Assembly: GCF_947495025.1 (NCBI RefSeq)
Contig: NZ_CANLXG010000002.1
Location: 994,124-1,058,123, forward strand
DNA: 64,000 nt
DNA from: an uncultured Roseobacter sp.
Lineage (GTDB): Bacteria; Pseudomonadota; Alphaproteobacteria; Rhodobacterales; Rhodobacteraceae
Direction of reading: 5' to 3'
In this document: positions 25,506 through 58,151 of the stretch, one piece after another
How positions within the stretch are numbered: the stretch's first letter is position 1
Layout: every line of letters starts with the position of its first letter
The notes under the pieces: generated by a model
What the model was told of the DNA's origin: nothing
Databases searched by the model: none
Seen by the model: only the letters and a program-made list of their open reading frames with translations
Position numbers and translations under genes: made by a program

Positions 25506-28500
25506 CTATGGCATCGGCCCGTTTTTTATTCTCTGGACGAAATTGTAAATCATGATGCTGCCCAGCAGGGCGATCAGGATCCACATAAGAATGCCCGGCC
25601 AGACCGCGCGCGGGTCGCAGAAACTGAGCACCAGCAGCGTGGCGACAAGCACCAGGTTGCCGATCCACACCAGCCCGATGGTCAGGAAGCGAAACGCGAT
25701 ACGATCGACGATACCGCTGTAGAAAGACCGCCAGGTCAGAAGTACAACAATTGCGAAAAGTGCCATGGCTGCCAGTGTAATCGCCGCGCGGTTGGGGCAG
25801 GAAAAGTCGCACACCCGGCTGACGGGCCCCTCGAAACTGGCCAGCAGAGGTGGCAGACGCGGTGTGTTGAAATGCCTGGCAATGATACCTGCAATGGCCG
25901 CCGTCTCGACACCCGCCGGGTCCGGCACCGGCCAGAAACCCACACCCGAGAAGTTGTCCTTGAAATAGACCACGTCATCCTCAAACTGTGAGAAGGGCGC
26001 AGGCGTGCGCGTATCGACCGCGTTTGCCTTGACCGATGTCAGGACAAATTCATGCCCCCCCGGGGGCAGCACCGGTATGATGCTGCGCAGCACGCTGGCG
26101 CGCAACTCGCCCTGAAACAAACCCTGTTCCATGCGGTAGCGCAGGCCCTTCTTGGCGTCTGTGGTGGGGCGCTCGAGAAAGAGCAGAATTTTGTCGATAA
26201 TCCTCGTGGTTTCACGGCCAAGGTCTCTGGGGCCATCCGTCTGCGAGGTGTCTGCATTCTCGTCAGCAAGTACCAGTGGGCTGGGTATCAGCAATTCATA
26301 GAGTTCATCAAAGAGCGGCTGGTCGAGACTTTCACCGACGAGCGGGAAGTCAAACGCCACATTGATGCGCAGACGGTCCCGGTTCGGCAGCGCTTCGTAC
26401 AGATCCTTGACGATGCTGATGAGGATTTTCATTTCATCCCCGCCCAGATCGTTGCCCTGATAACCGTGGAAAATGAGCGTCACACCATCGGGCTGAACCG
26501 GATCAAAGAGCGTCGGGACAGCGTCCCGGATATGTCCGAGTTCATAACTCTCGAACCGTTCGAAAGGGGCCATTTCGGTGGCAATGTCGTCGATCACATC
26601 CTCGATTGTCGCATCGTCCCACTGTGTCCAGTCCCGCAGATCAAACGCGAGGTCTGCGCGCGCCCGGAACTGGTGTGCTGAATTCACAAAGTCACGTTTC
26701 GCTGCCCGCCACTGTTCGCGGTTGCGCAGGGTCACCCGGGTACTGCCCGCATCCGAGAACTCCAGCCCGTAAAATGCGACCTGCCCTGTGAGGCTGAAAT
26801 CGATCTGCGTTCGGGCCGGTGGCGCGGGTGGTGCATCTTCTCCGTCCGCGCCCGCCGCGGGTTCTGTACCTGCACGTACGGGCGTCGGCGCAAACCAGAA
26901 CGGGTAAAAGCCGTATACCTGCAGATCTGCTTCGCGTCGTTCCGGGACACATTTACAGTCCGGCACCGCAAAATCGCCGAACACCCGGGTAATCTCGGGA
27001 TCCGTGATGTTTTTCTGCGCCTTCTGGATAATGCGTTCTGTCACGAACTGGGAAAATGGCACCTGGCCGTCGATCACCGGAATATTGGCAAGCGCTTCCT
27101 CGAACAGCCGATAGCTGGGGTAAGCAACGCCGTTCAGTGTCCGGAGCCGGTCGGGCAGATCCTGCGCGGTGGCGTCGGCAACAGCCGCTCGCACATAGGG
27201 CAAAGCCAGAATTTCGTCGCGCAGAGCAGGTGTAAGAGACCATTCCGACGATACGGCGGGTTCTATGATCGCAATCTGGGTGTCGACGGTGCGCGCCACC
27301 TGTCGGGCGGCGGTCGCCTCAAGTGCTGAGCGTACCTGGGCCCGCATCAGCTCGGGCACGGTAGCATCGGCAATCGGTGTGGATTTGATGGCGTCCGACA
27401 GTTCGGGGTTGTCGATGGCGCTTTCCACAGCGTCGTCTGTAGCCTCGGTCACCGTGATCTTTGGAGTCGGATCGGGCGCGCCCTCTTCTTCATCCTCCAG
27501 TTCGATCAGCGCCGTATCCGTGGGCGGCGGTACGGGCTCGGAGGCGGCAGCCAGGGTGTCGGCGGCGGCGGTGATCTCCTCTCCGACCAGAGCTTCCTGT
27601 GCGCTGACGAGACCTGCGCGGATGCGGTTTACCAGCTCTGCGCGTGTCGGAGTGCGGGCGGGGGCCAGCTCTGTCAGTACGGGGACTGCAGTCTCAAGCT
27701 CTGCGCGTGCCAGCAGGGCGTCAGTCGCATCCGGTTTCAGCAGGAAAGTCAGCGGCAGAGTCTCAGGCCCGGTGACCAGCTCTTCGATCTCGGCCAGTAC
27801 GCAGTCGTCAAGGTCGCTCGCCAGTGCCGGCCGCAACTGGCGCCAGAGCGCCTGTGGACTGTCAAAACCACCGTTCTCCCCGGCAAAAGCGTCCAGCTTG
27901 GGAGACAGGGAGACGAAAAATTCGAGCGATGCAATGTCTTCATCGTTGAGCGCATACCAGGTAAGCGTCTGTTCCTGCGGGCGTGGCGAGCAGGGGCCAC
28001 CTGTGTACACGGTAGAACCATCGCCGCCTTCGTTCTGTGCGTTGTAGTCATCAATCAGGGTGAGCACCGCAGGCAGCGTCCCTGCGAGACGGCGCAGGCG
28101 TTTTCTGGTGCCCTCGTCTTCCTGTGTGTCACCTGCCGCGATCCAGCCGAGGAAATCGTCACTCTGCAGCACACGCAGAGCGCCGACGCGGCTGGAACCC
28201 AGACGGCCCAGACGCTCCATGGCCTGTTGCCAGGCGTCGATACCTCCGGCGACGGGCAACATCGCACAGATGTCGGCCTCGGTTTTGTCCTTGAAGAGCC
28301 TGGTCAGGGTGGCAAGTGCCCGCGCTCCGTCGGGGTATTGTGCCAGCGCACCCCCCGGATCTTCGCAGGTGAAGGTTACAGCACTCCGTCCCAGTGCAAG
28401 GGTCTTCATTGCTGTGGTACCTGCAAGCCGCAGACCCAGTGTGCTGCGTGCCAGGGCATCGCCACCGGCCGTGAGATCAAGTTCAAAGAGCTGCTCTGAC

Positions 28501-28823
28501 CAGCCTGGGAAATTTTGCTGCAGGCGTGCATACTGCACCGCCAGTTGCAGCGTCGAGCGCACGTCATCCAGCCCCGCCGGGCGCGGTACATCCTCGCAAA
28601 GCTGTTGCAGTTTCTGACGCGTATAGGTGCCAAGCCGTCCGTCTGTCAGCAGGGCGTTATTGTCATTGTAGGCTGTTCGCAGACCCAGCTGAACTTCGCC
28701 GATACTCGCGGGAACCAGTTTGTCCTCTGTCAGGTCCATCAGGTCGCTGCAGGCGGCAGCGAGGACTGTACTCATCGAAAAATACAGGATTATTGCAGAC
28801 AGAAAACGGCTGAGACGGGTCAT
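25506..28823 (-). CDS. Large eCIS-associated envelope protein (signal peptide, PG-binding-like motif, GH18-like barrel lacking catalytic motif, C-terminal TM helices)
   Basis: 1105 aa; leader MTRLSRFLSAIILYFSMSTVLAAAC; EVQLGLRTAY...DGRLGTYTRQKL; QVYGFYPFW and PDGVTLIFHGY; about three hydrophobic segments at the C-terminus; ATGA overlap with the ATPase gene. Confidence 0.6.
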   Translation of the reverse strand: MTRLSRFLSAIILYFSMSTVLAAACSDLMDLTEDKLVPASIGEVQLGLRTAYNDNNALLTDGRLGTYTRQKLQQLCEDVPRPAGLDDVRSTLQLAVQYARLQQNFPGWSEQLFELDLTAGGDALARSTLGLRLAGTTAMKTLALGRSAVTFTCEDPGGALAQYPDGARALATLTRLFKDKTEADICAMLPVAGGIDAWQQAMERLGRLGSSRVGALRVLQSDDFLGWIAAGDTQEDEGTRKRLRRLAGTLPAVLTLIDDYNAQNEGGDGSTVYTGGPCSPRPQEQTLTWYALNDEDIASLEFFVSLSPKLDAFAGENGGFDSPQALWRQLRPALASDLDDCVLAEIEELVTGPETLPLTFLLKPDATDALLARAELETAVPVLTELAPARTPTRAELVNRIRAGLVSAQEALVGEEITAAADTLAAASEPVPPPTDTALIELEDEEEGAPDPTPKITVTEATDDAVESAIDNPELSDAIKSTPIADATVPELMRAQVRSALEATAARQVARTVDTQIAIIEPAVSSEWSLTPALRDEILALPYVRAAVADATAQDLPDRLRTLNGVAYPSYRLFEEALANIPVIDGQVPFSQFVTERIIQKAQKNITDPEITRVFGDFAVPDCKCVPERREADLQVYGFYPFWFAPTPVRAGTEPAAGADGEDAPPAPPARTQIDFSLTGQVAFYGLEFSDAGSTRVTLRNREQWRAAKRDFVNSAHQFRARADLAFDLRDWTQWDDATIEDVIDDIATEMAPFERFESYELGHIRDAVPTLFDPVQPDGVTLIFHGYQGNDLGGDEMKILISIVKDLYEALPNRDRLRINVAFDFPLVGESLDQPLFDELYELLIPSPLVLADENADTSQTDGPRDLGRETTRIIDKILLFLERPTTDAKKGLRYRMEQGLFQGELRASVLRSIIPVLPPGGHEFVLTSVKANAVDTRTPAPFSQFEDDVVYFKDNFSGVGFWPVPDPAGVETAAIAGIIARHFNTPRLPPLLASFEGPVSRVCDFSCPNRAAITLAAMALFAIVVLLTWRSFYSGIVDRIAFRFLTIGLVWIGNLVLVATLLVLSFCDPRAVWPGILMWILIALLGSIMIYNFVQRIKNGPMP

Positions 28824-30163
28824 GACGTGCGTCCTTCTTTGCGCATTTCAGCGGTAACGGCGGATTTGATATCTTCTGCGGCAACGGAAGATGCGCCGCG
28901 TCGCAGCGCGCCCACGGCCGCATGGCGCACCACATTGGTGATGGCCGCACCGGACAGATCATGGGTGCGCGCGAGTGCCCTGAGGTCGATGTCCTCCGCA
29001 ACGGGCACACCAGAAAGGGTGTTTTGCCACAGCTGAAGTCTTTCGGGTACGGTCGGCCGGGCAAACCCGATGGCACTCTGGAACCTCCGGAAGAAGGCAT
29101 CATCTATGTTGCTGCGCAGGTTACTCGCAAGGATCACAAGGCTCTGGCACTCCTCAATGCGCTGCAGCAGGTAAGAGACTTCCTGGTTTGCGTGACGGTC
29201 ATTTGATGATGCAGTTGCCGTGCGGGTGCCAAAGAGCGCGTCGGCCTCATCAAAAAACAGAATCCAGTCCCGTTCAGCGGCCATGTCGAAAATCAGACCG
29301 AGGTTCTTTTCCGTTTCGCCAATATATTTGGATACAACCATCGACAGGTCGACGCGGTAAACATCGAGACCTGTGCGCTGACCCAGCAGGGTTGCTGTCA
29401 GTGTCTTGCCTGTGCCCGGGGGGCCGTAGAAAAGCGCCTTGTAGCCTCTCCCGAACTGTCGTTCGAGCCCCCAGTCCTGCAGGATCGTATCGCGGTTTTC
29501 GAGCCATGCGAGGATGTGCTGCAACTGGTCCCGCACGCCGGCGGGCAGAATGAGGTCCTCCCAGCCGAGTTTCGTCGTCAGCCGTCTGGCGGGAAAATTC
29601 GGCGAGAAATCGGGCCGGGGTGGTTTCCCGTCACAGAGTGCGACAACGCGGTGTACCGGGATGTCGAGGCGGCTGACGTGGGAGGGCGGTGTCTGGGTGA
29701 GCGTGACGCCCGCACTGACCCGCAGCGGATTATCAGGTTCAAACAGCCGCATGGCGGCGATCCGTGCGGCAGTATCCGTGCCCGCGATCAGAAAGAGCGC
29801 CGTTTCAACCGAGGGCACAAAGGCGGTACCCGCGTCCGGGTGCCCGCCAAACTGCGAAAATGCGCGGTCAATGGCAGAGTTTTTCACATAGAACGGGTCG
29901 AGTACTGCTGAGTTGACATGCGGGGCGACGGCCAGGGCCAGCACCAGCCGCGCCGTAGCATTCATGCCAGTGCGCGCGATCAGATCACCCAGTGCAGTTC
30001 CCCGTGGCTGCTCTGGTGCAGGCGGCACAGTGAAAGGTGCCGTCGTGCCATCGAAGAAATGTCCCAGGCGGGCTTCGATCACCTGTTCAAGCCAGCGGAT
30101 CTCATGCGAGACAGCATCGGCATGTGTTGCCTGTGCTGTGCCGGGAGGGGAGGAGTCATTCAT
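28820..30163 (-). CDS. eCIS AAA+ ATPase (Afp15/Pvc15-like)
   Basis: Walker A GPPGTGKT, VDLSMVVSKYIGETEKNL, Walker B LFFDEADALFG, DRHANQEVSYLLQRIE. Confidence 0.93.
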   Translation of the reverse strand: MNDSSPPGTAQATHADAVSHEIRWLEQVIEARLGHFFDGTTAPFTVPPAPEQPRGTALGDLIARTGMNATARLVLALAVAPHVNSAVLDPFYVKNSAIDRAFSQFGGHPDAGTAFVPSVETALFLIAGTDTAARIAAMRLFEPDNPLRVSAGVTLTQTPPSHVSRLDIPVHRVVALCDGKPPRPDFSPNFPARRLTTKLGWEDLILPAGVRDQLQHILAWLENRDTILQDWGLERQFGRGYKALFYGPPGTGKTLTATLLGQRTGLDVYRVDLSMVVSKYIGETEKNLGLIFDMAAERDWILFFDEADALFGTRTATASSNDRHANQEVSYLLQRIEECQSLVILASNLRSNIDDAFFRRFQSAIGFARPTVPERLQLWQNTLSGVPVAEDIDLRALARTHDLSGAAITNVVRHAAVGALRRGASSVAAEDIKSAVTAEMRKEGRTS

Positions 30164-33100
30164 CGCTGTCCTCCCGCCAGGTCACATGACAGGGCAGAGG
30201 CATCCACGGCAGAGTTACCGGCCCCGGACTCCAGGGCAGGCTGTCGAGAAGCATGTCGAACGGGCCGGGCGTGACCCGCAGATGCGCACCGGTGGCATCG
30301 AGCCGCAGCGTACCGGCGCGGCGCAGGAATGCTTCGCGCAACCCGTCCGGAGACGTAGCCCCCAGCCGGGACCATCTTTCAATCACCGAGCGCAACAACC
30401 CATCCATCAGAGCATCGGCATCAGCATCGGGTTTGGTTGGAAGGGGCAGCGGAGCCGCCGGATCGACCCCCAGCAGGATATTGTGCAGCGGGTCGGGCGC
30501 GGGCACGGTCGTGTCCGGAGTGCCGGCAAGAGCCAGCAGAAGACCACGCGCAAGCGGCAGATCACCGGTTTCCAAGGCGCGCCCCTGTCGTTCTATGCCC
30601 GTCCGGTCAAACAGCAATGCATAGAACGGATGCAGCAGCACCAGTCCGGCCGTTTCAGAAACCAGCAGCGTTTCACCGTCCGTTTCGTTTGTCGCCTGAG
30701 CGGGTATCGCGACGGGCCGTGCACTTTCCTGGCCAGAGGGTGCGGCAGTGTCCGGGGTGCTGGTCAAAAGTGTTTCCAGCGCAGCCCGTGTCTGTCGATG
30801 CAGCCCGGTGGCGTCCGGACCCGGAGCAGTACCAAGGCGCGCGGAGACCGTGCGCAGGGCAAGAGTCCGGCGGTTCTCATCAGGCTCCAGCTGCGCAAGC
30901 AGATCGTCCAGTCGACGGCTCAGCGGCAAACCGGGCGGAGGCGCGCTTGTCGCATTGTGCAACAGGGCGCACATGACCGCAAAACGCGACTGCGGGTCGT
31001 CGTGCGCACGGCCCGGCCAGAGCTGTTCCACGAGGCGCAAGGCTGCCACCACAGTGCTGTCAGATGCGGGCAGTGTGACTCTGGCGATCTGTTCAAGCTG
31101 ACTGATGAGTTCCTCGTCGGTGCGTTCTGTGCTTTCAGGTTCGTCGGCTGTAACAGGTACTTTCCGCGTCGCGGCACGATAACCCGGCGTATCCGGAACG
31201 TGTCCGTCCCGTGTCGCAACCGGTTGGGTGATATGATCTTCTGTGCTGTTTTCGCTGGCGAGGGCCCCGGTGCCGGAACGTGACACTGCAGTCTCCGACA
31301 CTGCGCCGTGCGCTCGTACCGGGGTTTTGGCATCCGGGTTTTTACGATCAGAAAAATGCGCCTCAGCTGTTGCGATCCTGAGGTCGTCCGAACGCCCCGA
31401 AGTGGTATCCTGTTCCCCTGCCCGTGTTAAATCCTGATCTGGCGGATCAGATGCTTCGTCAGAAACATACGGATTCGTATGTTTCTTGCTCTTTTGTCCT
31501 GGCTGTTCAGCAGGTGCAGCACGCTGGATTGTTGTGTCTTCGCCGGCGTTCTGGCGTGCACCGGAAATTTCCCGATCCTCGTGGTCATGCACTGATCGGT
31601 GCGTGTGGTTATCCCAAACGTCGGATGAACCTTCCCGGGTCGACGGTATGTCGCCTGAATTTTCATGGTTGTTGCCCCGGGCCGCATCCGCCTCACGGCC
31701 GGATTCCCCGCCCACGGGCAGGGTCAGGGAACGCCCGGAAACCTGCGTTTGCGCATTGGCAGCGCCGAGAACGCGCAGTATTTCGCTCCGGGTCAGTCCA
31801 GCGATGCGCAGGACTTCGGTCAACGGGTCGATCGCCAGGGCGTCCGGTGTTTCACCGGCATCCGGATCATCTGCATCTTCCACCGCCAGACTGGCAAGGT
31901 CGTTGAAACGGGCGTTTTCAGTCGTGAAGCCTGTTTCGGGTTCGGCGCGGGCAAGTTTTTCGAAATCGAGTGTCCTGTCTGCAAGAAGCAGCAGCGTGGC
32001 TTTGCGGAGAGCTTCGGCCGGGTGATCGGCTTCTTCGGACAGGTCGCTCAGTCGGTCCCTCAGCAATCTGGCTGCCGGCGACAGAAGTCCGTGCGCAAGA
32101 ACCAGGAGTTCCGGTGTATCAAGCAGGGCCAGCGATGCCGTGAATGCATCCGGTTCTGACGCCTGAAAAGCACGCAGCGTTTCGGAATCAAGATCGTTTC
32201 CGCGCAGCATCGCCGTGTGGTCAGACGCGGGGTCAGAAAATTGTCTGTTCCGGGAAGAGAGCGCGGTCAGCGGATCCGGAGCGACACGGCCGCTTTTGCC
32301 AGCATTCCGGATTTCCGGGTTTTCTTGCAGCGGGTTTGAGACGCGTTTTGTGTCTGTGTCATTATTCGCGGAGCGCCGGCGGCTCTCATCGCCCGGAACG
32401 TCCCATGGAGAGCCATCCGCGGCCTGACTCAGCTTGCCCGAGGCTTGTCGCCCGTGCGCATCGGACAAGCTCCCTCCATTGCGCTCGGAAGGTGTGGCAG
32501 CATTTCCTGTGGCCGGGGGTGCAGTACTGACCACAGGCAGCAACGTTATCAGCCGGGCGATCAGACGCGATGCCGTTTTCTGTGCGTCTTCCCGGCTCGT
32601 TCCGCGATGAACCAGACCTTCGATGATGCGCTTTTCTGCGAACTTGAGGTCAGTCAGTTTGTCTGCACTCAGGATGTTCTGCCAGTCGATACTGTCAGAG
32701 ACAGTCCGGCCCTTTAACCGTTGACCCGGCAGAGATGTGGAAAGCGCTTTGTCCGCCAGACGGCGCAGTAACACAGACACACCAGCGGAAGTTTTAGCCA
32801 GACGGTCGATCTCGTCAGCAAACAAAGTACCTTCATCAGAGTTCCCCGGCACTCTTTCGGACCCGAAAGTTGGATCAGGCACATCTGCCCGGGTATCTGA
32901 CGGGATCACGCTTTTTCTTTCGCGATCAGCAGTGTCCAGAACACTGATCAGCTCGGACTGCAAAGCCGGGTCGGTTGCGAGCGGGGAAAGTCCGGCGATG
33001 CGCAGGGCAGCTAGTGCACCGGCCTCTTCCGGATACTCTTCCAAACGCAAGCGTATGGTTTCCTGAGAAGGCGTGGCCCCGAAGCGATTTGCCCAGTCAA

Positions 33101-33566
33101 AAAATCCCCGGGCCCGGGCGATGAGAACGTTGTGGCGTGCATCGTCCCAGCCGACCGGCGTTGACCGATTATCGCTGGGCGCAGAGACAACCGGTGAGGC
33201 CGAGGACACCGGCGATGCCAGTTTTTTCTCGGAAGGCGAAGCCTGTTCAGGATCTGCATTGAGAAACCGGCTGAGCGCGGCCTCCAGTTTATGCGCCAGA
33301 ATCCAGCGAACTTCAGACCACACAGGATCATCAGGCCAGTCGCCCAGATCAATGTCAATCTGTGGCGCATAAAGCGTCACCTCAGACCAGCGGGGGTGGT
33401 CGAGCACCTCTGACAATGCAGGCAGTATTTCCTTACGGACTGCCGCCAGAAGTTGCTCTGGCGATGAAAGCGGACCCTGTGCGGCAGTAATCTCAAAGGC
33501 TGCATCGACCGATGCAATGACCGCGTTCACCTGTTGAGGGGGTGATATGGGAGCGGCAGACGGCAT
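30156..33566 (-). CDS. Contractile injection system tape measure protein (Afp14-like)
   Basis: N-terminal IDIDLGDW segment and C-terminal AGLVLLHPF...LLRSVIERWSRLG..SPDGLREAFLRRAG...DMLLDSLPW...LPWM...VTW block typical of CIS tape measures; position between baseplate and ATPase. Confidence 0.85.
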   Translation of the reverse strand: MPSAAPISPPQQVNAVIASVDAAFEITAAQGPLSSPEQLLAAVRKEILPALSEVLDHPRWSEVTLYAPQIDIDLGDWPDDPVWSEVRWILAHKLEAALSRFLNADPEQASPSEKKLASPVSSASPVVSAPSDNRSTPVGWDDARHNVLIARARGFFDWANRFGATPSQETIRLRLEEYPEEAGALAALRIAGLSPLATDPALQSELISVLDTADRERKSVIPSDTRADVPDPTFGSERVPGNSDEGTLFADEIDRLAKTSAGVSVLLRRLADKALSTSLPGQRLKGRTVSDSIDWQNILSADKLTDLKFAEKRIIEGLVHRGTSREDAQKTASRLIARLITLLPVVSTAPPATGNAATPSERNGGSLSDAHGRQASGKLSQAADGSPWDVPGDESRRRSANNDTDTKRVSNPLQENPEIRNAGKSGRVAPDPLTALSSRNRQFSDPASDHTAMLRGNDLDSETLRAFQASEPDAFTASLALLDTPELLVLAHGLLSPAARLLRDRLSDLSEEADHPAEALRKATLLLLADRTLDFEKLARAEPETGFTTENARFNDLASLAVEDADDPDAGETPDALAIDPLTEVLRIAGLTRSEILRVLGAANAQTQVSGRSLTLPVGGESGREADAARGNNHENSGDIPSTREGSSDVWDNHTHRSVHDHEDREISGARQNAGEDTTIQRAAPAEQPGQKSKKHTNPYVSDEASDPPDQDLTRAGEQDTTSGRSDDLRIATAEAHFSDRKNPDAKTPVRAHGAVSETAVSRSGTGALASENSTEDHITQPVATRDGHVPDTPGYRAATRKVPVTADEPESTERTDEELISQLEQIARVTLPASDSTVVAALRLVEQLWPGRAHDDPQSRFAVMCALLHNATSAPPPGLPLSRRLDDLLAQLEPDENRRTLALRTVSARLGTAPGPDATGLHRQTRAALETLLTSTPDTAAPSGQESARPVAIPAQATNETDGETLLVSETAGLVLLHPFYALLFDRTGIERQGRALETGDLPLARGLLLALAGTPDTTVPAPDPLHNILLGVDPAAPLPLPTKPDADADALMDGLLRSVIERWSRLGATSPDGLREAFLRRAGTLRLDATGAHLRVTPGPFDMLLDSLPWSPGPVTLPWMPLPCHVTWREDSDE

Positions 33567-44774: not shown

Positions 44775-44954
44775 TCAGCGCTCCCTGCCGCGGCGAGCCG
44801 CATCCGCCAGCCGATCGTCCATTTCGCGCAGCAGATCACGACGCATCATCTCAAGCGCCGTCTCCAGGTCTTCGCGTTGCTCCGCGGGCCGTGTGTCATC
44901 CCGCGCCGGACCAAAGCGCCCTTTCAGCACAAGCGTACCGATCTCGACCGCCAT
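44775..44954 (-). CDS. Small Afp6/DUF5908-like protein, 59 aa (below the ORF-track cutoff)
   Basis: Translated by hand: MAVEIGTLVLKGRFGPARDDTRPAEQREDLETALEMMRRDLLREMDDRLADAARRGRER*; TGATG overlap with the tube gene; occupies the afp6 position between afp5 and afp7. Confidence 0.8.
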   Translation of the reverse strand: MAVEIGTLVLKGRFGPARDDTRPAEQREDLETALEMMRRDLLREMDDRLADAARRGRER

Positions 44955-48240: not shown

Positions 48241-48255
48241 GCTTCGGGTCCTCCT

Positions 48256-50353: not shown

Positions 50354-51996
50354 GCGCGCACCAGCCTGCGCCGCAACGCCCTGAAGACCCACAACAGGCC
50401 GAGCACCAGCAGAAAGTAAAACACCAGCAGACCATTCATCATCGTGGCGGTGTCCGCACCCTCTGAGACCAGAAGATTGATGGTCGAGATCAGCTCACCA
50501 ACCGCGATGGCACTTGCCATGCCCGCTGCCTTTACGATGTTCACGCAGGCGGCCACCAGCCCGTCAAACCCGCGGGAGATTGCGCCGGGCAGCAGAGACA
50601 GTAGCGGTGTCCCAGGTCGTTCTCCCTGTTCTGCCGTGAGGGCGTGGCTGAGGATGATCGTATTTGTTGCGCCGGCATAAAGCGACAGGATCACCGCCGC
50701 GATCCCGAAGGATCCGGGCACAAAGCCACCTGAGTTCCCGAGGATACCGCCAAGACCGAAGAAAACGATATAAAGCTGAAGGATCGGAGGGGTCATCCGG
50801 GCCACGGTGATCAGCGCCTTCTGGGGCAGGAGCAGGATCCGACCCAGCAGGCCAAACCGGGAAAGCGTGGCATTCAGCAGCGACAGGGTCACACCCACAG
50901 TCAGCGACCCGACGATTGCAAGCGCGCTGAGACCCAGTGTCAGAGCCAGACCTCTGGCCAGACGCGCGCGGTTATACGGGCTGGCGGCGGCGCGCAGATC
51001 AATGCCGGTGATGTCATAGAGCGTAACGATCCAGCCAGGCGGATCAGGGTCGGGCGAAGACTGCAGCGGCGCCTCATTCAGGCATCTGTCGCGGTGCTGG
51101 CCGGTCTGAGGGTCCCGTGCACAGACCCCTTTGCCATTCTGTGTGGCCCGCCAGAGCGCATGTTTGCCAAGCACGAAATCGCTGCGCGGTATGCTCCATT
51201 TGTCCTGCAGTTCCAGGATGCGGCCCGAAGCATGCCATTCGCCAATCATGTCGGAGACAAAACGGCCAAGGTCTTCCTGTTCGGTCCCCTTTGCGACGAG
51301 AATGGCCCAGGGGGTTACCAGAATGGCCTCGTCCATGATGCGAAGGGCCGGGTCGGGCTGGGCCAGTATCAGCTGGGCCAAGGCTGTGTCGTCAAAGGCC
51401 CAGCCAACGCAGCGCTCCTGCTGCAGCGCCAGCCGCGAGTCCCGGTTGGACGAGAAATACTCGCCATCAATCCCGTACTCCTCTTCGAGCGCCCGGTTAT
51501 AATATGCGCCGCGGTTCAGGCACAGTTTTTCGCCGCGCAGATCCGCCCATGACCTGAAATCATATTCCCTGCGGGTCAGCACGACGACCCCGCTGGAGTA
51601 GTAGTTGGGTTGCAGCAATCCCGATTGCCTGCGCCGCTCGGCTGTATCACCGGTCGTCGCAATCACCACATCCACAACGCCCTGATTCACGCGTCCCATG
51701 CGGTTGCCCGAAGTTACCGCCTGAAGCTCGAGTTCTACGCCCATACGGCGCGCCAGATCCCGTGCAAGGTCGGGTTCCAGCCCAACAATCGCGCCGTTCG
51801 CATCGCGCATACCCCAGGGAGGATAGTCGTCCTTGACCCCTGCAATCAGTGTTCCGCGCTGCAGGATATGAGCCAGCCGCCCCGTCGGGTCATCGGGCAT
51901 CCTGGCGACCATATCCGGAGAAACATTCTGAGCCAGGGCGCCCTGAACCTGCAGCGTCAGGAGCAATGCCAGAATGGGGGCCAGCACTCTCAGCAT
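50350..51996 (-). CDS. Fusion of family-3 substrate-binding domain and ABC permease domain
   Basis: Signal peptide; RGTLIAGVKDDYPPWG...GLEPDLARDLA (SBP_bac_3); C-terminal GLALTLGLS...RMTPPILQLYIVFFGL permease; ATGCTGA overlap with the methyltransferase stop. Confidence 0.8.
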   Translation of the reverse strand: MLRVLAPILALLLTLQVQGALAQNVSPDMVARMPDDPTGRLAHILQRGTLIAGVKDDYPPWGMRDANGAIVGLEPDLARDLARRMGVELELQAVTSGNRMGRVNQGVVDVVIATTGDTAERRRQSGLLQPNYYSSGVVVLTRREYDFRSWADLRGEKLCLNRGAYYNRALEEEYGIDGEYFSSNRDSRLALQQERCVGWAFDDTALAQLILAQPDPALRIMDEAILVTPWAILVAKGTEQEDLGRFVSDMIGEWHASGRILELQDKWSIPRSDFVLGKHALWRATQNGKGVCARDPQTGQHRDRCLNEAPLQSSPDPDPPGWIVTLYDITGIDLRAAASPYNRARLARGLALTLGLSALAIVGSLTVGVTLSLLNATLSRFGLLGRILLLPQKALITVARMTPPILQLYIVFFGLGGILGNSGGFVPGSFGIAAVILSLYAGATNTIILSHALTAEQGERPGTPLLSLLPGAISRGFDGLVAACVNIVKAAGMASAIAVGELISTINLLVSEGADTATMMNGLLVFYFLLVLGLLWVFRALRRRLVRA

Positions 51997-52796
51997 GAGG
52001 CCTCTGCACATATTCCGTAGCCCCAGCGCACCGGGCAGACGGGCGTCAGCAAACGATCGATCCAGCGTGCCAGTCCGTTGTGCAGTAACCAGCTTTCGGG
52101 CAATACGCTTTCACAACTCAGGCGCTCCAGCGCAAAACCGGCTGCTGTCAGCTCGCGTGTCAGTTTCTGTGGATCAAAAAGCTGGTAGTGCAACACCACG
52201 TCCTGTCCGTCGTCCGTGCGACGGCGGTAATGGACCAGCCCGTCGCGCGCGCTGTCTGTCTGTTCCGAGCGGAAACGTCGTGCGCGATTTGGAACAGAAA
52301 TGAGCAGGCGACCCGCCCCTGGTTTCAGCGCGGCCCGCATCCGGCCAAGCGCGTCAGCGCGTGCTGCCGGGTCCGTTATGTGCCCCAGAACGCCGAAAAG
52401 GCAGAGCACCAGATCGACCCGGCCAGACACCTCGATATAGTGATCAAGGTCGGTCGTTTCCGGTCCGATGACCGCCAGGTCGGTCCAGCCCGAAGCAGCG
52501 GCCCGGGCGCGTACTGTTTCCAGTGCCGCCGGGCTGACGTCAAACCCCGCCGCCCGTGAGACAAGGCCCTGGAGGCGCAGCAGATAGCGCCCGCTGCCGC
52601 AACCGAAATCCAGCACCGCCGCGTCGGGGCCGAGCAGATGCGTGATCCGGCGCCACATTGTCCTGTTCGGGCTGGGATAGCGTCTGTCATAGAATCCGGA
52701 TGTAAAATAGAGCTGATACGACGCGCGTGTGGTCGCGTCGCCCGGGGTCACCGGCGGCGTGTCCGCGTCGGGTTTTTCTGTCTCGTGGACGGTCAA
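51990..52796 (-). CDS. Class I SAM-dependent methyltransferase
   Basis: VLDFGCGSGRYL, GFDVSPAAL and DLVLCLFGVLGHI motifs. Confidence 0.85.
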   Translation of the reverse strand: MTVHETEKPDADTPPVTPGDATTRASYQLYFTSGFYDRRYPSPNRTMWRRITHLLGPDAAVLDFGCGSGRYLLRLQGLVSRAAGFDVSPAALETVRARAAASGWTDLAVIGPETTDLDHYIEVSGRVDLVLCLFGVLGHITDPAARADALGRMRAALKPGAGRLLISVPNRARRFRSEQTDSARDGLVHYRRRTDDGQDVVLHYQLFDPQKLTRELTAAGFALERLSCESVLPESWLLHNGLARWIDRLLTPVCPVRWGYGICAEASC

Positions 52797-54085
52797 TTCG
52801 GGCTGACGCTGCCGGTACCCAACACGTCCTCCAGCCGCTTGCGCCAGTCGCGGTTCCGCATCTGTCGAATGAGCGCCCGGTCAATCTGGCGTCGCAGATC
52901 TTCGGACACGGACGTATGCGAAATACCCCAGCCATAAGGCTCATTGCGATAGACATTTGGCAGGACGGCGATCTTGCCTTCGTAAGTATCCTGACGGCTC
53001 AGGTAAGTCAGGGCGATCCAGTCACCCAGCACGGCGTCCACCTCATCTTTGGCCAGAAGGTTGGCAGCCTGCCGCCAGCTGCTGACGAGGCGCACACCGC
53101 CGGCCAGTGCAGGATCATCGTCGACGGTAATGTCTTCCCGCTCGGGGTCTTCCGGATTGCAGACCAGCTGGTTGACACGACGATCCAGCGCGGACGCCAC
53201 GTCTGACCCGGGTTCAGTGTCGCTTTTGAGTTTGCCGTATTCGGTCAGCAACAACGCCTGAGCCGTCGAGCAATCCAGCGTGGCGATGGTCATATTGGTA
53301 AGTTCAGATGCGGGAACTTTTTGCTGCGCGCCGACAGAACCTACAAAGGCCGAGGTCAGAACGCCCAGCAGGGTTGCCGAGAGTGCCGTACCGACGACGG
53401 CCAGAAAGATTTCCAGCACTTTGGCGACCGCGGTCGAATATCCGTCTCCGACGCCCCGCAGCCCGATGGTCCGGATGATCGACTCCAGCAGCGATCGCAG
53501 CCACAGAGACGTGCGCCCGCCGGGATCGTTTTCCTTTGCAAACAGCAGCCAGCGGATGAGGAACGCCATGATCAGGTTAAAGGTCAGAAAGAGCAGAACC
53601 GCCTGGGCGACCGTAGGGTGCAGAATGGTTTCAGACACAATCTTCCTGGCCTGCGTAAAATCGATTGCATTCGACGGCGGCAAAGCCAGAGCCAGCCCCG
53701 ATGACAGGTACTGCTGGGAGAAATCATAGGATTCCATGCGCTGGGACGTGATTGTCAGAGGTGCTATGACGACGTCTATCCGGCCGGATACCAGCCCGAC
53801 TTCCTGACCGTCGATTGTGTTGCACGCAACAAAGGTCACTTCGGGTGCTACCGAGCGGCCTACATCGTCCAGCACAAACAGCGATCTCTCGACACGGCGC
53901 CAGAGGTCATAGGCAAAACCGGCCGGTGCGCCGGAACTGTCAAAGAAGGAAAAAGGTTCCGCGTTGTCGCGCAACGCTACCACAATATCTCCGCCCGGAC
54001 GGACCTGCGGGCATGCGTGTGCGGAAGGTGCAAAGCCGGTGACTGCGCTGACGAGCACTGAGAACAGGAGCAATGCGCGGATCAT
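52793..54085 (-). CDS. Prokaryotic ionotropic glutamate-receptor-like protein (split SBP domain + TM1-pore-TM2)
   Basis: S1: AEPFSF...GFAYDLW...DVVIAPLTITSQRMESYDFSQQY; TM1; pore-like SIIRTIGLRGVGDG; TM2 ending LTSAFV; S2: DAVLGDWIALTYL...EPYGWGI. Confidence 0.75.
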   Translation of the reverse strand: MIRALLLFSVLVSAVTGFAPSAHACPQVRPGGDIVVALRDNAEPFSFFDSSGAPAGFAYDLWRRVERSLFVLDDVGRSVAPEVTFVACNTIDGQEVGLVSGRIDVVIAPLTITSQRMESYDFSQQYLSSGLALALPPSNAIDFTQARKIVSETILHPTVAQAVLLFLTFNLIMAFLIRWLLFAKENDPGGRTSLWLRSLLESIIRTIGLRGVGDGYSTAVAKVLEIFLAVVGTALSATLLGVLTSAFVGSVGAQQKVPASELTNMTIATLDCSTAQALLLTEYGKLKSDTEPGSDVASALDRRVNQLVCNPEDPEREDITVDDDPALAGGVRLVSSWRQAANLLAKDEVDAVLGDWIALTYLSRQDTYEGKIAVLPNVYRNEPYGWGISHTSVSEDLRRQIDRALIRQMRNRDWRKRLEDVLGTGSVSPN

Positions 54086-54318: not shown

Positions 54319-56826
54319 ATGAGAATACGTGAGGCTCAGAGATACCGGCAGCAGTCTGCGGGTCCCTCAGCCGCCCGACCCGCGCCGGTCCCGCAGGATG
54401 GACCAGGTCTGTCCGGTCTGCGGGCCGCGGCAGATCTCAGCCACCCCCGCCAGCAAACGTCAGCGCTTCAGGCGCGCGCGCGCGGGCACAATGCCACCGG
54501 CGCCCGGCCTGCAGTACCGGTTATGCAACGCGCCGCCGTGATCCCCTATGACACGTGGAAGTCACGCAGCACCAAGGCCGGCATGAAGCGTTCGGAACTG
54601 CTGTTGCGGATCGATGAGGCACTCATCCTGTATCAGGCCTCTGTGTTTCTTGACGTCAAAACGCAAAAGACCCGGCTGCAGGCGCTGAGCAGAAGGATCA
54701 ACGCCTGGATCGGATCGAAGAACGCGAAATATGCCAGCAAGAAGCGTAATTCGCGCCGCATGAAAGAGGTGCAGGACCTTAAAGATCAGGTGGATGCCAA
54801 ACAGATTGAGCTGAACAATGTGCCGGACGACAACCCGGATGTTGGCAAAAGAACGATTTTTACATTCGACGTTTACAACCGCATCCGCCTGCGCGTGCAG
54901 CAGATCATGTCTGTCCCGCCGAGGGATATTGAAACCGCGACGGCTGAAAAGATGGTGTCGGGCCTTGCAGAGATGCGTGAGCAGGTGCGCGATATCGACG
55001 GCTACCACGACCCTGTAACGGCGATCTGGGATGCCTGTTCTGTCATGATCGCGCTGGGGGAAACACGTCTGAATGTCGCGGTGGCGGCGAAGACGCGCAG
55101 GAGGCATCCCCGCCCCGTCCCGCTGGAGCGTTATAAGTCACGGTACCGCCGTCATTATGCCCGCGCCGAAGCGCAGATCGCTGCCCAGAACGATACGGGC
55201 CATACCGTTGCGCCGCACGTGCTGGCCTCAATGCAGAAGACGCGTGAGGATGTGGCTCTTTATTCTTCTGTCGCGGGCAAGGGTGATGGCGCAGAGGCGG
55301 ATTTTGATCTGCCCGAAGGGTTCGAGGACTCGATGGACCTCGCTGGTGAGGCCATGAACGCGCTGGGCATGCAGGGCACGGGCGGCGTCGGAAACGAGGG
55401 CCTTGAAGACTACTGGAAGACCACAATTCCAGAAGGTGAATCCGAACAGAAGACCGCAGCCAAACAGATGGCGGCTACCATCATGGGCGGGTTGCACAGT
55501 GCCATTGAGGACGACCCCGGTGCCATGGACAAGGTATCGGGCGGCGCGGATATCGGTGCGAGCGCGGTGATGAGCGTCAGGCTGGGGGCCGAACTGGGCC
55601 GGCTGTTTGCCATTGTCTCTGACTGTAACCGGCGGCTGAAAACAGACCCCGGGAACAGCAAGCTGAAGGCAAAGCGCCGAAAGGCCATCGCAGAACTGAC
55701 CTTTCTGTCGACTGTTGGCACCACCGAAATGCTGGGAAAGTACCTGGGCGGCGCCTTCACCGCGATGCGGGGGGACGGGCACAAATTCGACTCCAACATG
55801 TTCAGCAGTGACAGCACGGATGTCAGCACCGACATGAAGCTGACGGGTGATGCCGCGGGCGTGGTCCTCGGCGCCGTGAACAGCGTCAAAGACATTGTAA
55901 ACATGTGCAAGAATATCTTTGCCCGTGCGAAGCCGGTCAAAAACGACAGTAAATCGCTGGGTGAGCATGGTCAGGATCTGTTCGATTCCGTGCACGAGAT
56001 TGCCGGTGCGACCAACAGCGTGGCGAAATCCTATTCGGCCGTGCGCAAACTCTACGAGCAGATCGCGGCGGGCGGACAGATTGCCTCTGAAAATGCCGGT
56101 GCTGTGTCCGATGTAGTGCGCGGCACTGTCAATAATGTGCCTGTTATCCCCGTGCTCGGCCTGATCAAAGGCTGTATGGATTTTGTGAGCGAGGGCATCA
56201 AACTGGCCCGCACCGGTCACGCTGCGCACAAGGCCAAAGCGATGGGCAAAAAGCTCACCGCACAGTTCAGTGAACCGCTTTACCTTGCGTTTGTTGTCAC
56301 CAGAGACAAATTCGTAAAGCAGATCAACCGGGCAATCATTGATCTCATCCACGCGGCCGCCTCTATTACATCCGGTGCTCTGTCGGTCAGTGGACTGGGT
56401 GCCGGGATCGGTGCGGCCATCGGAATGGTATCTCTCGCGGCCAAACTGACACAGACCGGTATCCGCAAATTTAAACAGCATCGACGTGATAAAAAAGGCG
56501 GCGAAGAAACCAACCTGGAAAAGGCCGCAGCAACAGCGGATGGCGAAGAATTCGTCAATCACGCGCTGTTGCTCACTCAGGAAAAACTGGCCGGCAAGAA
56601 AAAGCGCGGACGCTATAACCTCGACAAGACCACCGCCAACAAAGAGTTCCGGTATAATTTTGCGGCGATGGAAATCCTCCGTGCACCGGAAGAAGAGCGC
56701 AAATGGTTCTTTGATGCACTGAACATACGTCGGGATGTTCAGCGGATCGAAAACAACGACACACCTGGCTTTAACAAAGAACAGGCCAAAATGGCGCTGA
56801 TCATCAAAAGCCTCAAGGAAAGGTAG
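54319..56826 (+). CDS. Putative eCIS cargo/toxin protein
   Basis: About 835 aa; low-complexity leader ending VMQR, then a 4-helix membrane-localisation-like segment and Gly/Ala-rich hydrophobic helices; divergent from the eCIS operon and followed by chaperone-like and DUF4157 genes. Start placed at ATG 54319. Confidence 0.6.
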   Translation: MRIREAQRYRQQSAGPSAARPAPVPQDGPGLSGLRAAADLSHPRQQTSALQARARGHNATGARPAVPVMQRAAVIPYDTWKSRSTKAGMKRSELLLRIDEALILYQASVFLDVKTQKTRLQALSRRINAWIGSKNAKYASKKRNSRRMKEVQDLKDQVDAKQIELNNVPDDNPDVGKRTIFTFDVYNRIRLRVQQIMSVPPRDIETATAEKMVSGLAEMREQVRDIDGYHDPVTAIWDACSVMIALGETRLNVAVAAKTRRRHPRPVPLERYKSRYRRHYARAEAQIAAQNDTGHTVAPHVLASMQKTREDVALYSSVAGKGDGAEADFDLPEGFEDSMDLAGEAMNALGMQGTGGVGNEGLEDYWKTTIPEGESEQKTAAKQMAATIMGGLHSAIEDDPGAMDKVSGGADIGASAVMSVRLGAELGRLFAIVSDCNRRLKTDPGNSKLKAKRRKAIAELTFLSTVGTTEMLGKYLGGAFTAMRGDGHKFDSNMFSSDSTDVSTDMKLTGDAAGVVLGAVNSVKDIVNMCKNIFARAKPVKNDSKSLGEHGQDLFDSVHEIAGATNSVAKSYSAVRKLYEQIAAGGQIASENAGAVSDVVRGTVNNVPVIPVLGLIKGCMDFVSEGIKLARTGHAAHKAKAMGKKLTAQFSEPLYLAFVVTRDKFVKQINRAIIDLIHAAASITSGALSVSGLGAGIGAAIGMVSLAAKLTQTGIRKFKQHRRDKKGGEETNLEKAAATADGEEFVNHALLLTQEKLAGKKKRGRYNLDKTTANKEFRYNFAAMEILRAPEEERKWFFDALNIRRDVQRIENNDTPGFNKEQAKMALIIKSLKER

Positions 56827-56833
56827 ACCATCA

Positions 56834-57367
56834 GTGGCAACGCCCGAAGAGATGGCAGATGCACTGGACAGGGCAGGATTGCGCCCCGTGCTGACAGACT
56901 GCGCGCCGGAGCCCTATCATATCGCGGTTCCGTTCCCCGATCAGAGTGTCGAGGAAGAGCCGGTTCTGCGGATCAACCTGCTTGCTTCCGCAGATGGGGA
57001 TCTTGAACTGTGGCAGTTTATTTCGGTCATCCCGGCGCAGGCGGTGTCCGACCGGGCGTGGGCGCTGGTGCGCAACATGCTGAACACGGTGAACCTGTCA
57101 CTGACAGTTGGCAAAGTGCTGGCGATCGAAGACGAACAGATGATCTATTTCAGCTGCAATCATCTGGCCCCGCCCGGAGACAGCGCACTGAAGAGCGGCC
57201 CGCCAGTGGCGCACTTTATTCTGGAGAATCTGGTGGTGCTTACTCCGGCGCTGGTTGACGCGCTGAGTACCGATCCGCCGCCTGATTTCGGCGCTGCAGA
57301 AAGGGTGTTGGATGAAACGCACAAGGCTTTGAGCGAACTCGCAGAGGCAATTTCAACTGAGAGGTGA
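56834..57367 (+). CDS. CesT/YbjN-like chaperone or immunity protein
   Basis: 177 aa, acidic; LNTVNLSLTVGKVLAIEDEQMIYF resembles the YbjN/CesT N-x-x-x-x-x-G-K-x-x-x-D core; 7 bp after the cargo stop. Confidence 0.5.
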   Translation: MATPEEMADALDRAGLRPVLTDCAPEPYHIAVPFPDQSVEEEPVLRINLLASADGDLELWQFISVIPAQAVSDRAWALVRNMLNTVNLSLTVGKVLAIEDEQMIYFSCNHLAPPGDSALKSGPPVAHFILENLVVLTPALVDALSTDPPPDFGAAERVLDETHKALSELAEAISTER

Positions 57368-57419
57368 AAAGCTCTCTGAAATGTGCCAGGATAGCTCGCA
57401 TACCGAAAAGGACGTAACT

Positions 57420-58151
57420 ATGGCTCAGATATTCGCATCGGAACGCAGTCAGGTCAGCACCTCTGCCGCCAAATCCGGCAGAGGAAGTGGCGACACTGCT
57501 CCCGAACTGGTGCTTGCTGATCTTCAGAGCGATGCGGACCGGAGTGCCGCAACAGGGCGTCTTGCGCAGATGCAGAGCCGCGAGCGTGGTCCGGCACAGC
57601 GTATGGAGGAGGAAGAGCTGCAGGGCAAATTTATTGGTGAGCCGGCCCAGCGAATGGAGGAAGAAGAGGCTTTGCAGGGTAAGTTTACCGGCGACACGGT
57701 CCAGCGGATGGAAGAAGAGGAACTGCAGGGCAGGTTTGCTGAAAAGCCGGCCCAGCGGATGGACGAAGAAGAAGCGCTCCAGGGTAAGTTCGCCGCAGCA
57801 CCCGTTCAGCGCACAGAGGACGGCGGCGGGATGCCTGCGGGTCTGAAGGCAGGTGTTGAAAGCCTTTCCGGGATGGCGATGGACGACGTAAAAGTACATT
57901 ATAACTCGTCAAAGCCCGCGGCGCTGCAGGCGCATGCCTATGCGCAGGGCACCGATATTCACCTCGGCCCCGGGCAGGAGAAACACCTGGGCCATGAAGC
58001 CTGGCACGTCGCTCAGCAGAAACAGGGCCGGGTCAAACCCACGATGGAAATGGGCGGCACGCCTGTGAATGATGATGCGGGTCTGGAAAGCGAGGCCGAC
58101 ACGATGGGTGCCAAAGCCGCTCAGATGGCGTCAAAGGATCCGGAGACCTGA
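57420..58151 (+). CDS. DUF4157 (eCIS core) domain protein without C-terminal toxin domain
   Basis: MPAGLKAGVESLSGMAMDDVKVHYNSSKPAALQAHAYAQGTDIHLGPGQEKHLGHEAWHVAQQKQGRVKPT, the canonical DUF4157 with HExxH; start placed at MAQIF. Confidence 0.92.
   Translation: MAQIFASERSQVSTSAAKSGRGSGDTAPELVLADLQSDADRSAATGRLAQMQSRERGPAQRMEEEELQGKFIGEPAQRMEEEEALQGKFTGDTVQRMEEEELQGRFAEKPAQRMDEEEALQGKFAAAPVQRTEDGGGMPAGLKAGVESLSGMAMDDVKVHYNSSKPAALQAHAYAQGTDIHLGPGQEKHLGHEAWHVAQQKQGRVKPTMEMGGTPVNDDAGLESEADTMGAKAAQMASKDPET
57591..57812 (+). repeat. Four in-frame tandem repeats of (P/T)(A/V)QRM(E/D)EEE(A)LQG(K/R)F
   Basis: Units of 17, 18, 17 and 18 aa, visible in DNA as repeated CAGCGxATGGAxGAxGAAGAG, followed by a partial PVQR. 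Confidence 0.9.

Follow-up and report, generated by a model that had tools for sequence, protein, structure and literature searches.

Layout of the locus and its nearest characterised relative

The DNA considered here is a 64,000-nucleotide stretch from an uncultured Roseobacter sp. (contig NZ_CANLXG010000002.1), referred to below, at its full length, as the window. Between positions 25506 and 58151 it carries a complete contractile injection system (CIS), as described by means of an open reading frame (ORF) map along with Pfam and NCBIfam scans. Three blocks can be distinguished, i.e., a minus-strand operon of core genes, a co-directional membrane module of four genes upstream of that core (49739-54085, minus strand), and a divergent cassette of three genes (54319-58151, plus strand), the last of which encodes an eCIS_core/DUF4157 protein. 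The reference system in what follows is SalCIS, from Salmonella enterica subsp. salamae (Ejaz et al., bioRxiv June 2025; Nat Commun April 2026; PMC13266070), whose proteins are named SalCis plus a number, and statements on SalCIS are taken from PMC13266070.

The core genes form one row on the minus strand, from 49565 to 25506, and at most junctions neighbours overlap by 1-8 bp, as read from ORF coordinates. Its features, with lengths in amino acids (aa), are in order:

48990..49565, minus strand: cap protein (Cis16a-like), Pvc16_N at E 1.6e-28
48256..48990, minus strand: 244-aa protein, a cap-adaptor candidate (Cis16b) by position
45898..48240, minus strand: sheath of 780 aa (Cis2), Phage_sheath_1C plus Cadherin_3, best solved match SalCis2
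46561..47373, minus strand: insert of ~270 aa within the sheath, comprising a cadherin-like domain, a CshA-like beta domain and an Ala-rich helical hairpin
45414..45872, minus strand: tube protein (Cis1), Phage_T4_gp19 at E 2.6e-48
44954..45409, minus strand: second gp19-type tube protein, Phage_T4_gp19 at E 3.4e-43
44775..44954, minus strand: 59-aa ORF, a Cis6/Afp6-like plug candidate in a slot shared with a 57-59-aa gene of relatives
44088..44771, minus strand: tube-baseplate connector (Cis7-like), CIS_tube at E 2.6e-44
42315..44081, minus strand: VgrG-like spike (Cis8), Phage_base_V at E 2.1e-20, and Phage_GPD
41992..42282, minus strand: PAAR tip protein (Cis10), an ORF whose homologue in locus L059 has PAAR_motif
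41551..41988, minus strand: gp25-like baseplate wedge (Cis9), GPW_gp25 at E 1.7e-26
40552..41544, minus strand: 330-aa lipoprotein of predicted TbpB-like handle-plus-barrel fold, present in the Rhodobacteraceae branch only
36549..40550, minus strand: large baseplate protein (Cis11-like) of ~1333 aa, best solved match SalCis11, with its likely start at the ATG at 40550
35689..36552, minus strand: 287-aa Cis13-like protein, between the Cis11-like and Cis12-like genes
33566..35692, minus strand: baseplate protein (Cis12-like) of 708 aa, matching SalCis12 (PDB 9RCE_B) at E 4e-27
30156..33566, minus strand: tape measure (Cis14) of 1136 aa, CIS_TMP at E 2.4e-44
28820..30163, minus strand: AAA+ ATPase (Cis15), AAA at E 1.3e-26, and AAA_lid_3
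25506..28823, minus strand: 1105-aa envelope protein, a SalCis20 homologue with a signal peptide, a large periplasmic part and three C-terminal transmembrane (TM) helices

An earlier note on this DNA, made without database searches, had described the core genes as a tightly overlapped, cap-first run with a single sheath, and ORF coordinates together with family scans agree. All four of the accessory elements which that note listed are present as well, i.e., the sheath insertion, the lipoprotein, the terminal membrane protein and the upstream module, as is the divergent cargo cassette, ending with its DUF4157 protein. The locus has a single sheath gene, and CIS_TMP is matched just once in the genome as a whole. 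Also borne out by the family scans is the claim that the locus is neither a prophage nor a canonical type VI secretion system (T6SS). A prophage origin was rejected, that is, as no capsid, terminase or integrase family match was found in the ORFs scanned between 22.1 and 60 kb. Canonical T6SSs, by comparison, differ in having a TssB/TssC split sheath and ClpV, neither of which is present here, and no locus gene matches a T6SS family; the window's ATPase instead is an Afp15-type AAA protein, its sheath is phage-type, and a tape measure is present. The Afp and PVC systems (clade Ia) differ in other ways, with several sheaths, the cap gene last and a long Afp13-type fibre, whereas the window has one sheath, its cap gene first and no fibre-like gene, and Afp and PVC parts are only distant matches to its sheath and baseplate proteins.

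SalCIS has been placed in clade Ib of the extracellular contractile injection systems (eCISs) along with AlgoCIS and the Amoebophilus T6SS-iv, its authors writing of "a distinct cluster of CISs". Its operon opens with the cap gene and includes a cap adaptor, there is one sheath, and its compact Cis13 has been modelled as a trimeric membrane anchor. PDB entries are 9R9H, 9R9I, 9R9N, 9RCE and 9R9A, the last of these being SalCis20, an inner-membrane protein (PMC13266070). Much of this plan is shared with the window, in which the cap likewise comes first and the sheath is single. Both have a long Cis11, separated from Cis12 by a compact Cis13-like gene, and in both an envelope protein with a signal peptide and three TM helices comes after the tape measure and the AAA ATPase; DUF4157/HEXXH cargo is a further common feature. 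For every part that was compared with solved structures, SalCIS is by homology the nearest.

The sheath matches SalCis2 (9R9H) at E 4.5e-168 (564 bits), followed by the sheaths of the Anabaena thylakoid-anchored CIS (tCIS; 3.7e-96, 326 bits) and AlgoCIS (1.7e-95, 324 bits), with Afp and PVC at 1e-40 to 1e-56. The Cis11-like protein matches SalCis11 (9RCE_A, 1323 aa) at E 5.2e-81 in two stretches, and its AlgoCIS and tCIS counterparts at E 2e-45 and 6e-35. SalCis11 itself is an extended Cis11, with an extra domain IV at residues 419-549 (PMC13266070). The window's gene likely starts at the ATG noted above because alignments with homologues begin at query residues 20-24. For the Cis12-like protein the next-best matches after SalCis12 are Alg12 and the tCIS Cis12. 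AlgoCIS and tCIS, as these second-best solved matches, also share with the window a single sheath on which additional surface domains are present, a long spike of gp5-like type, HEXXH cargo and, putatively in the window's case, a cap made of two layers. AlgoCIS is released, however, and tCIS is anchored to thylakoids via extensions of its baseplate and fibre; neither a SalCis20-type protein nor an iGluR-type module is reported for either one in the available descriptions, on which, rather than on the loci, this comparison draws.

The earlier note had assigned the locus to a MAC/AlgoCIS type and had proposed comparing sheath, ATPase and baseplate sequences with eCIS collections. Its clade was right (Ib, with AlgoCIS and T6SS-iv), but the nearest solved system is SalCIS, to which the sheath, Cis11 and Cis12 all are closest among solved structures, rather than a MAC or AlgoCIS. 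Similarly, it had allowed that the same architecture might already have been characterised. This holds for the basic plan, for which SalCIS supplies both structures and cryo-electron tomography, and does not for the lipoprotein, the decorated sheath or the module, which were not met in the published accounts searched. The accessory genes, the non-conservation of which had been set as refuting the proposal, are co-conserved with the CIS core in relatives, and the roseobacter-type host that had been suggested fits with the nearest locus being that of Roseobacter weihaiensis H9. As for the terminal protein, seen by that note as a membrane and peptidoglycan-binding (PG-binding) one, the signal peptide and three TM helices stand, though Pfam does not detect a PG_binding domain even at E 5.

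That terminal, 1105-aa protein is by homology a SalCis20 counterpart: a Sec signal is followed by a large periplasmic domain, and three TM helices lie at the C-terminus. Searching the PDB with the single sequence returned no match, SalCis20 being found by profile only. With a profile of five sequences, namely the window's protein and those of four relatives, 9R9A is matched at E 8.4e-23; the alignment falls into four collinear stretches, which run from an N-terminal DGxxGxxT motif, common to the two proteins, through to the TM helices. The terminal membrane protein, and with it tethering to the cell, therefore has already been published for the clade. The two are nonetheless very divergent, at 1105 versus 864 aa. 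As Pfam, even at E 5, was of no help with the window's protein, the labels PG_binding and GH18 rest on motifs and on the SalCis20 paper, which describes a GH18/SleL-like region (PMC13266070). The gene follows that of the ATPase in all Rhodobacteraceae and gammaproteobacterial relatives in which the region is visible.

The 287-aa protein may similarly face a membrane, as a putative anchor rather than a fibre. In each of the 29 related loci, those of Bacteroidota and gammaproteobacteria included, its gene separates the Cis11-like from the Cis12-like one, and none of the protein's 483 homologues has a Pfam domain. It has no PDB match, and a Salmonella homologue is absent among the 120 matches listed. 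Neither it nor the 708-aa protein yielded anything useful from Pfam at E 5.

Taking these comparisons together with those of the sections below, we consider it probable that the locus encodes a complete SalCIS-type (clade Ib) CIS which is envelope-docked and which carries Rhodobacteraceae additions, a putative sensor module among them. By analogy with SalCIS, the particle would assemble in the cytoplasm, its baseplate would dock at the inner membrane via the 287-aa Cis13-like and the SalCis20-like proteins, and it would not simply be released in the manner of Afp or PVC. From a different perspective, however, this might instead be a classical released eCIS, with lysis of the producer freeing particles, the 1105-aa protein breaching the wall, and Ig-like sheath domains sticking to targets or mucus, as is thought for Ig-like decorations of phages. 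Clade Ib does also hold AlgoCIS and the MACs, which are released, and a GH18/SleL-like region such as that of SalCis20 would suit a wall-breaching role. The domain types of the sheath insert (Cadherin_3, CshA_repeat), moreover, are typical of extracellular adhesins, and the insert varies fast among close relatives, as expected for an exposed surface. SalCIS as the nearest characterised system was not released, though, its release being undetectable and its particles seen in tomograms beside the inner membrane (PMC13266070). Nor was a holin, endolysin or spanin cassette seen in the locus by family scans, and the Rhodobacteraceae proteins are without the acidic DxD positions of SalCis20. Release accordingly strikes us as unlikely, if far from fanciful.

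The lipoprotein and the sheath insert

The core architecture is known already from SalCIS. New with respect to the papers searched are a TbpB-like lipoprotein found across the branch, an adhesin-like sheath decoration that varies between loci, and a module linked to the CIS. By comparative genomics, the Rhodobacteraceae branch has added the lipoprotein, the decoration and, in about half of loci, the four-gene module.

Relatives were sought in two ways. A sheath search of 401 genomes of the bacterial family gave 47 with a match, six of which, besides the window, are close relatives, and species-representative genomes scanned for the 287-aa family gave 29 loci, the nearest being that of Roseobacter weihaiensis H9 at 83% identity. 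Within Rhodobacteraceae the carriers are Roseobacter metagenome-assembled genomes (MAGs), Roseovarius aestuarii, Sedimentitalea, Rhodovulum steppense, R. marinum, Yoonia and Loktanella species, Cereibacter ovatus and Amaricoccus sp. B4. Outside of that family are Competibacterales and Chromatiaceae MAGs (Gammaproteobacteria) and six Bacteroidota MAGs. The family also holds a second, more distant CIS lineage (genomes G097, G042, G386 and G136; loci L013-L019), in which the cap gene is last, the sheath is of ~500 aa without an insert, and the lipoprotein, Cis13-like and SalCis20-like genes are missing. Genome G349, 100% complete and from the window's own genus, has no sheath, Cis13-like or GluR match, GluR denoting the receptor-like gene of the module; the island therefore is variable within the genus, an accessory trait.

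The lipoprotein gene lies between those of gp25 and Cis11. It is found in every Rhodobacteraceae locus with a readable region (19 besides the window), and tblastn found no homologue in gammaproteobacterial or Bacteroidota loci. The window's lipobox is LGSC, and the lipobox Cys is kept in 16/16 aligned homologues. Where loci are split into two operons it is the lipoprotein gene which opens the baseplate operon, so that it stays with Cis11. A profile search against PDB sequences came back empty, and Pfam at E 5 gave nothing useful. An AlphaFold2 (AF2) model built from the 16-sequence alignment, by contrast with these sequence searches, has a per-residue confidence (pLDDT) of >90 over about residues 130-320, and its top Foldseek matches are the TbpB C-lobe (E 5e-6), the NHBA C-domain (TM-score 0.69), fHbp and LbpB. 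As modelled, the fold is thus the handle plus eight-stranded barrel of Slam-dependent surface lipoproteins. The genome from which the window comes, 99.9% complete, gave no match to Slam itself (DUF560, PF04575), control genomes being equally silent.

Within an envelope-docked CIS, this lipoprotein would extend the envelope anchor towards the outer membrane. In T6SSs, TssJ-TssL-TssM, i.e., a lipoprotein together with inner-membrane proteins that have periplasmic domains, ties a contractile machine to the envelope. The likeness is a conceptual one, with no relation in sequence or fold, the window's lipoprotein being TbpB-like by its model and TssJ transthyretin-like. The lipoprotein was not met in the published CIS accounts searched, and the word 'lipoprotein' has zero occurrences in the main text of PMC13266070. 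It could complete the envelope dock, and in doing so provide a handle on the question of anchoring.

The sheath insert spans about residues 290-560 of the sheath, a place at which SalCis2 has a short segment; the SalCIS sheath, at 519 aa, lacks the ~270-aa cadherin/CshA-like addition. Its first part is recognised by Pfam as Cadherin_3 (E 3.3e-9), and sheaths of relatives have matches to Cadherin_3, CshA_repeat and Big_9. In an alignment of eight sheaths the insert differs in size, from none in Amaricoccus (526 aa) through one domain in genome G198 (626 aa) to two in most others (726-743 aa), with the Ala-rich hairpin as an extra in the window's and Sedimentitalea's sheaths (767-780 aa). Judging from this alignment, the insert is to be seen as a fast-changing surface decoration. 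It possibly serves in the lateral bundling of particles (compare SalCIS and T6SS-iv), or else in adhesion should particles get outside. Such a sheath decoration, as recognised by its domains, likewise was not met in the published CIS accounts searched.

Two of the related loci appear damaged. In Rhodovulum marinum DSM 18063 (L036), the Cis11, Cis12, ATPase and SalCis20-like genes match in separate pieces only and the GluR homologue (G405:C8:46433-47491) has an internal TAA stop; this CIS locus looks decayed. In Cereibacter ovatus JA234 (L058:8422-9606), residues 2-60 of the second tube protein run into a VgrG match that starts from residue 187, with the CIS_tube gene missing and the remaining locus and module intact. 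This looks like a deletion, one which would disable the particle.

The membrane module and its proposed ligand triggering

Upstream of the cap gene, and oriented as it is, are four genes:

52793..54085, minus strand: iGluR-type protein (ionotropic glutamate receptor type) of 430 aa, with S1 lobe, M1, pore loop, M2 and S2 lobe
51990..52796, minus strand: class I S-adenosylmethionine-dependent methyltransferase, Methyltransf_23 at E 1.4e-16, and Methyltransf_25, _12 and _11
50350..52011, minus strand: 553-aa fusion of a solute-binding protein (SBP) domain, SBP_bac_3 at E 5.3e-24 and intact-looking, with a divergent ABC-permease-like domain
49739..50353, minus strand: second divergent permease-like protein, 217 aa, TIGR01726 below cut-off, four TM segments

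The 430-aa protein contains a split SBP_bac_3 domain (residues 34-416) and Lig_chan-Glu_bd, with TM segments at about 154-186 and 219-250. It matches the ligand-binding domain of GluR0 at E 2.5e-8, and its AF2 model (pLDDT 84) is matched by Foldseek to the full ligand-binding and transmembrane domains of AMPA receptors (E 4e-14, about 430 columns). The arginine signature PLTITxxR and a GDW motif are invariant in 42 iGluR-type homologues, so the protein probably still binds an alpha-amino-acid-like ligand. With GluR0 (Synechocystis Slr1257) and other prokaryotic iGluRs it shares both the S1-M1-P-M2-S2 order and PLTITxxR. The pore loop differs, however, reading RTIGLRGVGDG (consensus RTxGLxGxGD in the 42 homologues) rather than the K+ filter TVGYG, in GluR0 TVGYGD, and it lies in the region of lowest model confidence (pLDDT <50 at residues 208-213).

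The 553-aa and 217-aa proteins do not match a polar-amino-acid ABC importer, as defined by a BPD_transp_1/EAA region and a cognate ATPase. For the membrane domain of the former there is no BPD_transp_1 at E 0.01 and no solved permease at E 10, with its permease half showing only the N-terminal three-TM subdomain TIGR01726, below cut-off. No ATPase gene is present in the window's module or in nine related modules. In the 173-bp gap ahead of the cap gene no terminator-like site is listed, the promoter/terminator scan concerned (49300-54700) being uninformative.

Modules adjoin CIS genes and are co-oriented with them in 15/17 contexts, and do so in three different positions. Upstream of the cap gene they are found in the window, R. 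weihaiensis, Roseobacter SGMAG-43, Rhodovulum steppense, genomes G110 and G171, and Roseobacter YSTF-M11, sitting there between the DUF4157 cargo gene and the cap gene, i.e., within the locus. In Amaricoccus sp. B4 and MAG L061 it is the lipoprotein gene that they lie upstream of, and in Cereibacter ovatus they are downstream of gp25. Reduced modules consist of GluR alone (G214, L063) or of GluR plus the methyltransferase (L059). In the 401-genome family sample the GluR gene is present in 5/7 close CIS loci versus 1/394 other genomes (Fisher p 1.5e-9, a value which is overstated, as related genomes are not independent). Searches of the literature returned no paper linking an iGluR-type gene or an SBP-permease to a CIS, and a module of iGluR, SBP-permease and methyltransferase is not described in the available parts of PMC13266070.

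Our reading is that the module is a self-contained, periplasmic ligand-binding membrane unit that was recruited to and then kept with this CIS lineage. In the envelope-docked system that we favour, it would sense a periplasmic alpha-amino-acid-like ligand and couple that sensing to assembly or firing. We infer such ligand triggering, to which the linkage of the genes lends support. A more specific version, in which the methyltransferase, the iGluR-like channel and the degenerate, SBP-fused permease pair together sense amino acids in the periplasm and thereby gate the assembly or firing of an envelope-anchored CIS, with the TbpB-like lipoprotein and the SalCis20-like protein together making up a trans-envelope dock, is put forward tentatively and with considerable doubt. 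If true, a ligand-triggered, T6SS-like mode would have arisen independently in clade Ib, and a glutamate-receptor-type channel would for the first time be connected to a bacterial injection machine. Among published proposals, the one nearest to a membrane partner that binds a ligand for a cytoplasmic CIS concerns Streptomyces coelicolor CisA, a membrane protein needed for CIS firing, with an SBP-like outer domain, which its authors propose to be a stress or signal sensor (eLife 2025, PMC12237407). CisA nevertheless is unlike the module in belonging to another family and another CIS clade, and in being a single bitopic protein without channel, permease-like domain or methyltransferase.

Several points weigh against the reading of an envelope-docked, sensor-equipped system. 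Particles, their location and ligand binding by the module are here predictions from the genes. That the 287-aa protein is the equivalent of SalCis13, which is without a PDB entry, is putative and based on gene position. Hydrolase activity of the 1105-aa protein is doubtful, for in the profile alignment SalCis20 has DGITLDID and the Rhodobacteraceae proteins DGVTLI..GY, with the acidic DxD positions gone; a scaffold therefore is expected rather than an active hydrolase. The SalCIS authors themselves regard membrane anchoring as unresolved and activating conditions as unknown (PMC13266070). The module, furthermore, is lacking from Yoonia and Loktanella loci, from G156 and G198, and from about half of related loci in all, so this CIS does not require it. 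Lastly, the full module stands alone in Sulfitobacter sp. D35 (G067:C1:811000-815400), where its neighbours are lgt and the genes for a universal stress protein (Usp) and an alanine symporter; that genome, 99% complete, gave no match to the sheath or to Cis13. One metagenome contig (L062) also has the module alone.

These last two points invite as well the view that the module is simply an independent amino-acid channel or uptake cassette, a neighbour of the CIS on one genomic island but functionally unconnected with it, the more so given that the surroundings of the CIS-free copies are of a housekeeping kind. Against this are the repeated CIS adjacency and co-orientation just described, in three positions and usually between the DUF4157 and cap genes, and the near absence of the module from the other 394 genomes of the family, while the missing ATPase gene and the degenerate permease weaken a transporter role. 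Such independence we consider improbable. Sulfitobacter sp. D35, with the module but no CIS, and Yoonia and Loktanella, with the CIS but no module, can in any case serve as natural controls. On the question of what triggers the firing of CISs, the module, with its two intact-looking amino-acid-binding domains and a channel, is a testable lead. There are cultivable Rhodobacteraceae isolates that carry the locus. Given how common roseobacters are on surfaces and hosts in the sea, the system may also play a part in interactions with algae, larvae or bacteria.

Candidate cargo genes and minor components

Divergent from the module are three genes:

54319..56826, plus strand: 835-aa candidate cargo or toxin, no known domain
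56834..57367, plus strand: 177-aa acidic partner, found directly 3' of the toxin homologue in loci L030 and L063
57381..58151, plus strand: DUF4157/eCIS_core protein, eCIS_core at E 2.7e-10, with a HEAWH motif and QRMEEEE-LQGKF repeats

The cargo of the proposed envelope-docked CIS would be the DUF4157 metallopeptidase-like protein along with the 835-aa protein and its partner. A DUF4157/HEXXH effector is reported for every operon of the SalCIS cluster (PMC13266070), and in most relatives of the window's locus the DUF4157 homologue adjoins the cap or GluR gene. For the 835-aa and 177-aa proteins Pfam at E 5 gave nothing useful. The entire toxin-partner-DUF4157 cassette recurs beside the CIS in Roseovarius aestuarii (L030) and in L063, where homologues of the 835-aa protein are 42% identical to it. 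The 177-aa protein is a candidate chaperone or immunity factor for the candidate toxin.

Immunity could be sought elsewhere, in that the lipoprotein, and possibly the module too, might protect the producer, as an immunity factor in the periplasm, from the DUF4157 metallopeptidase-like effector. Periplasmic lipoproteins are common as T6SS immunity proteins. In two split loci (L043 and L046) the lipoprotein and DUF4157 genes stand back-to-back. One SalCIS HEXXH effector, in addition, is toxic solely when directed to the periplasm, and an immunity gene was not found in SalCIS (PMC13266070). The back-to-back arrangement, though, follows simply from there being two divergent operons, and the lipoprotein gene is fixed to that of Cis11, lying in unsplit loci about 15 kb from the effector. 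We regard this role as very improbable, and prefer for the lipoprotein that of an extended envelope anchor.

Toxin and DUF4157 homologues have in common an N-terminal motif of the type LQ[RQ]KA[DN], found ~40 residues in and followed by xQR repeats (window 54319-54560 and 57381-57620; L030, L063, L059 and L060). As it is conserved across genera, this motif is a candidate cargo-loading signal.

Among the minor core components, the cap gene leads the operon in all close relatives and the 244-aa gene follows it in relatives too. The 244-aa protein has no Pfam match (E 5) and no PDB match to SalCis16b or to any CIS chain; matches to oxalate decarboxylases, at E of about 1e-3 only, were treated as due to chance. 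The gene of 57-59 aa that occupies the Cis6 slot in relatives has, in one of them, a weak DUF5908 match. The C-terminus of the CIS_tube protein is LysM-like by eye, and the PAAR protein is 68-92% identical among relatives.

Adjoining the cargo cassette, at 58191-58925 on the minus strand, is a gene for a further protein of 244 aa, which has three TM segments and of which the C-terminus weakly matches a winged helix (Trans_reg_C, E 0.005). It was dropped as a part of the system, tblastn having found no match in any related locus, and probably does not belong to it.

In Roseobacter sp. YSTF-M11 (L060:8278-9849), DUF4157 is fused to a 300-aa Gly/Ala-rich, hydrophobic C-terminal region which resembles the C-terminal part of the window's 835-aa candidate toxin, suggesting that cargo domains are shuffled in a modular fashion.

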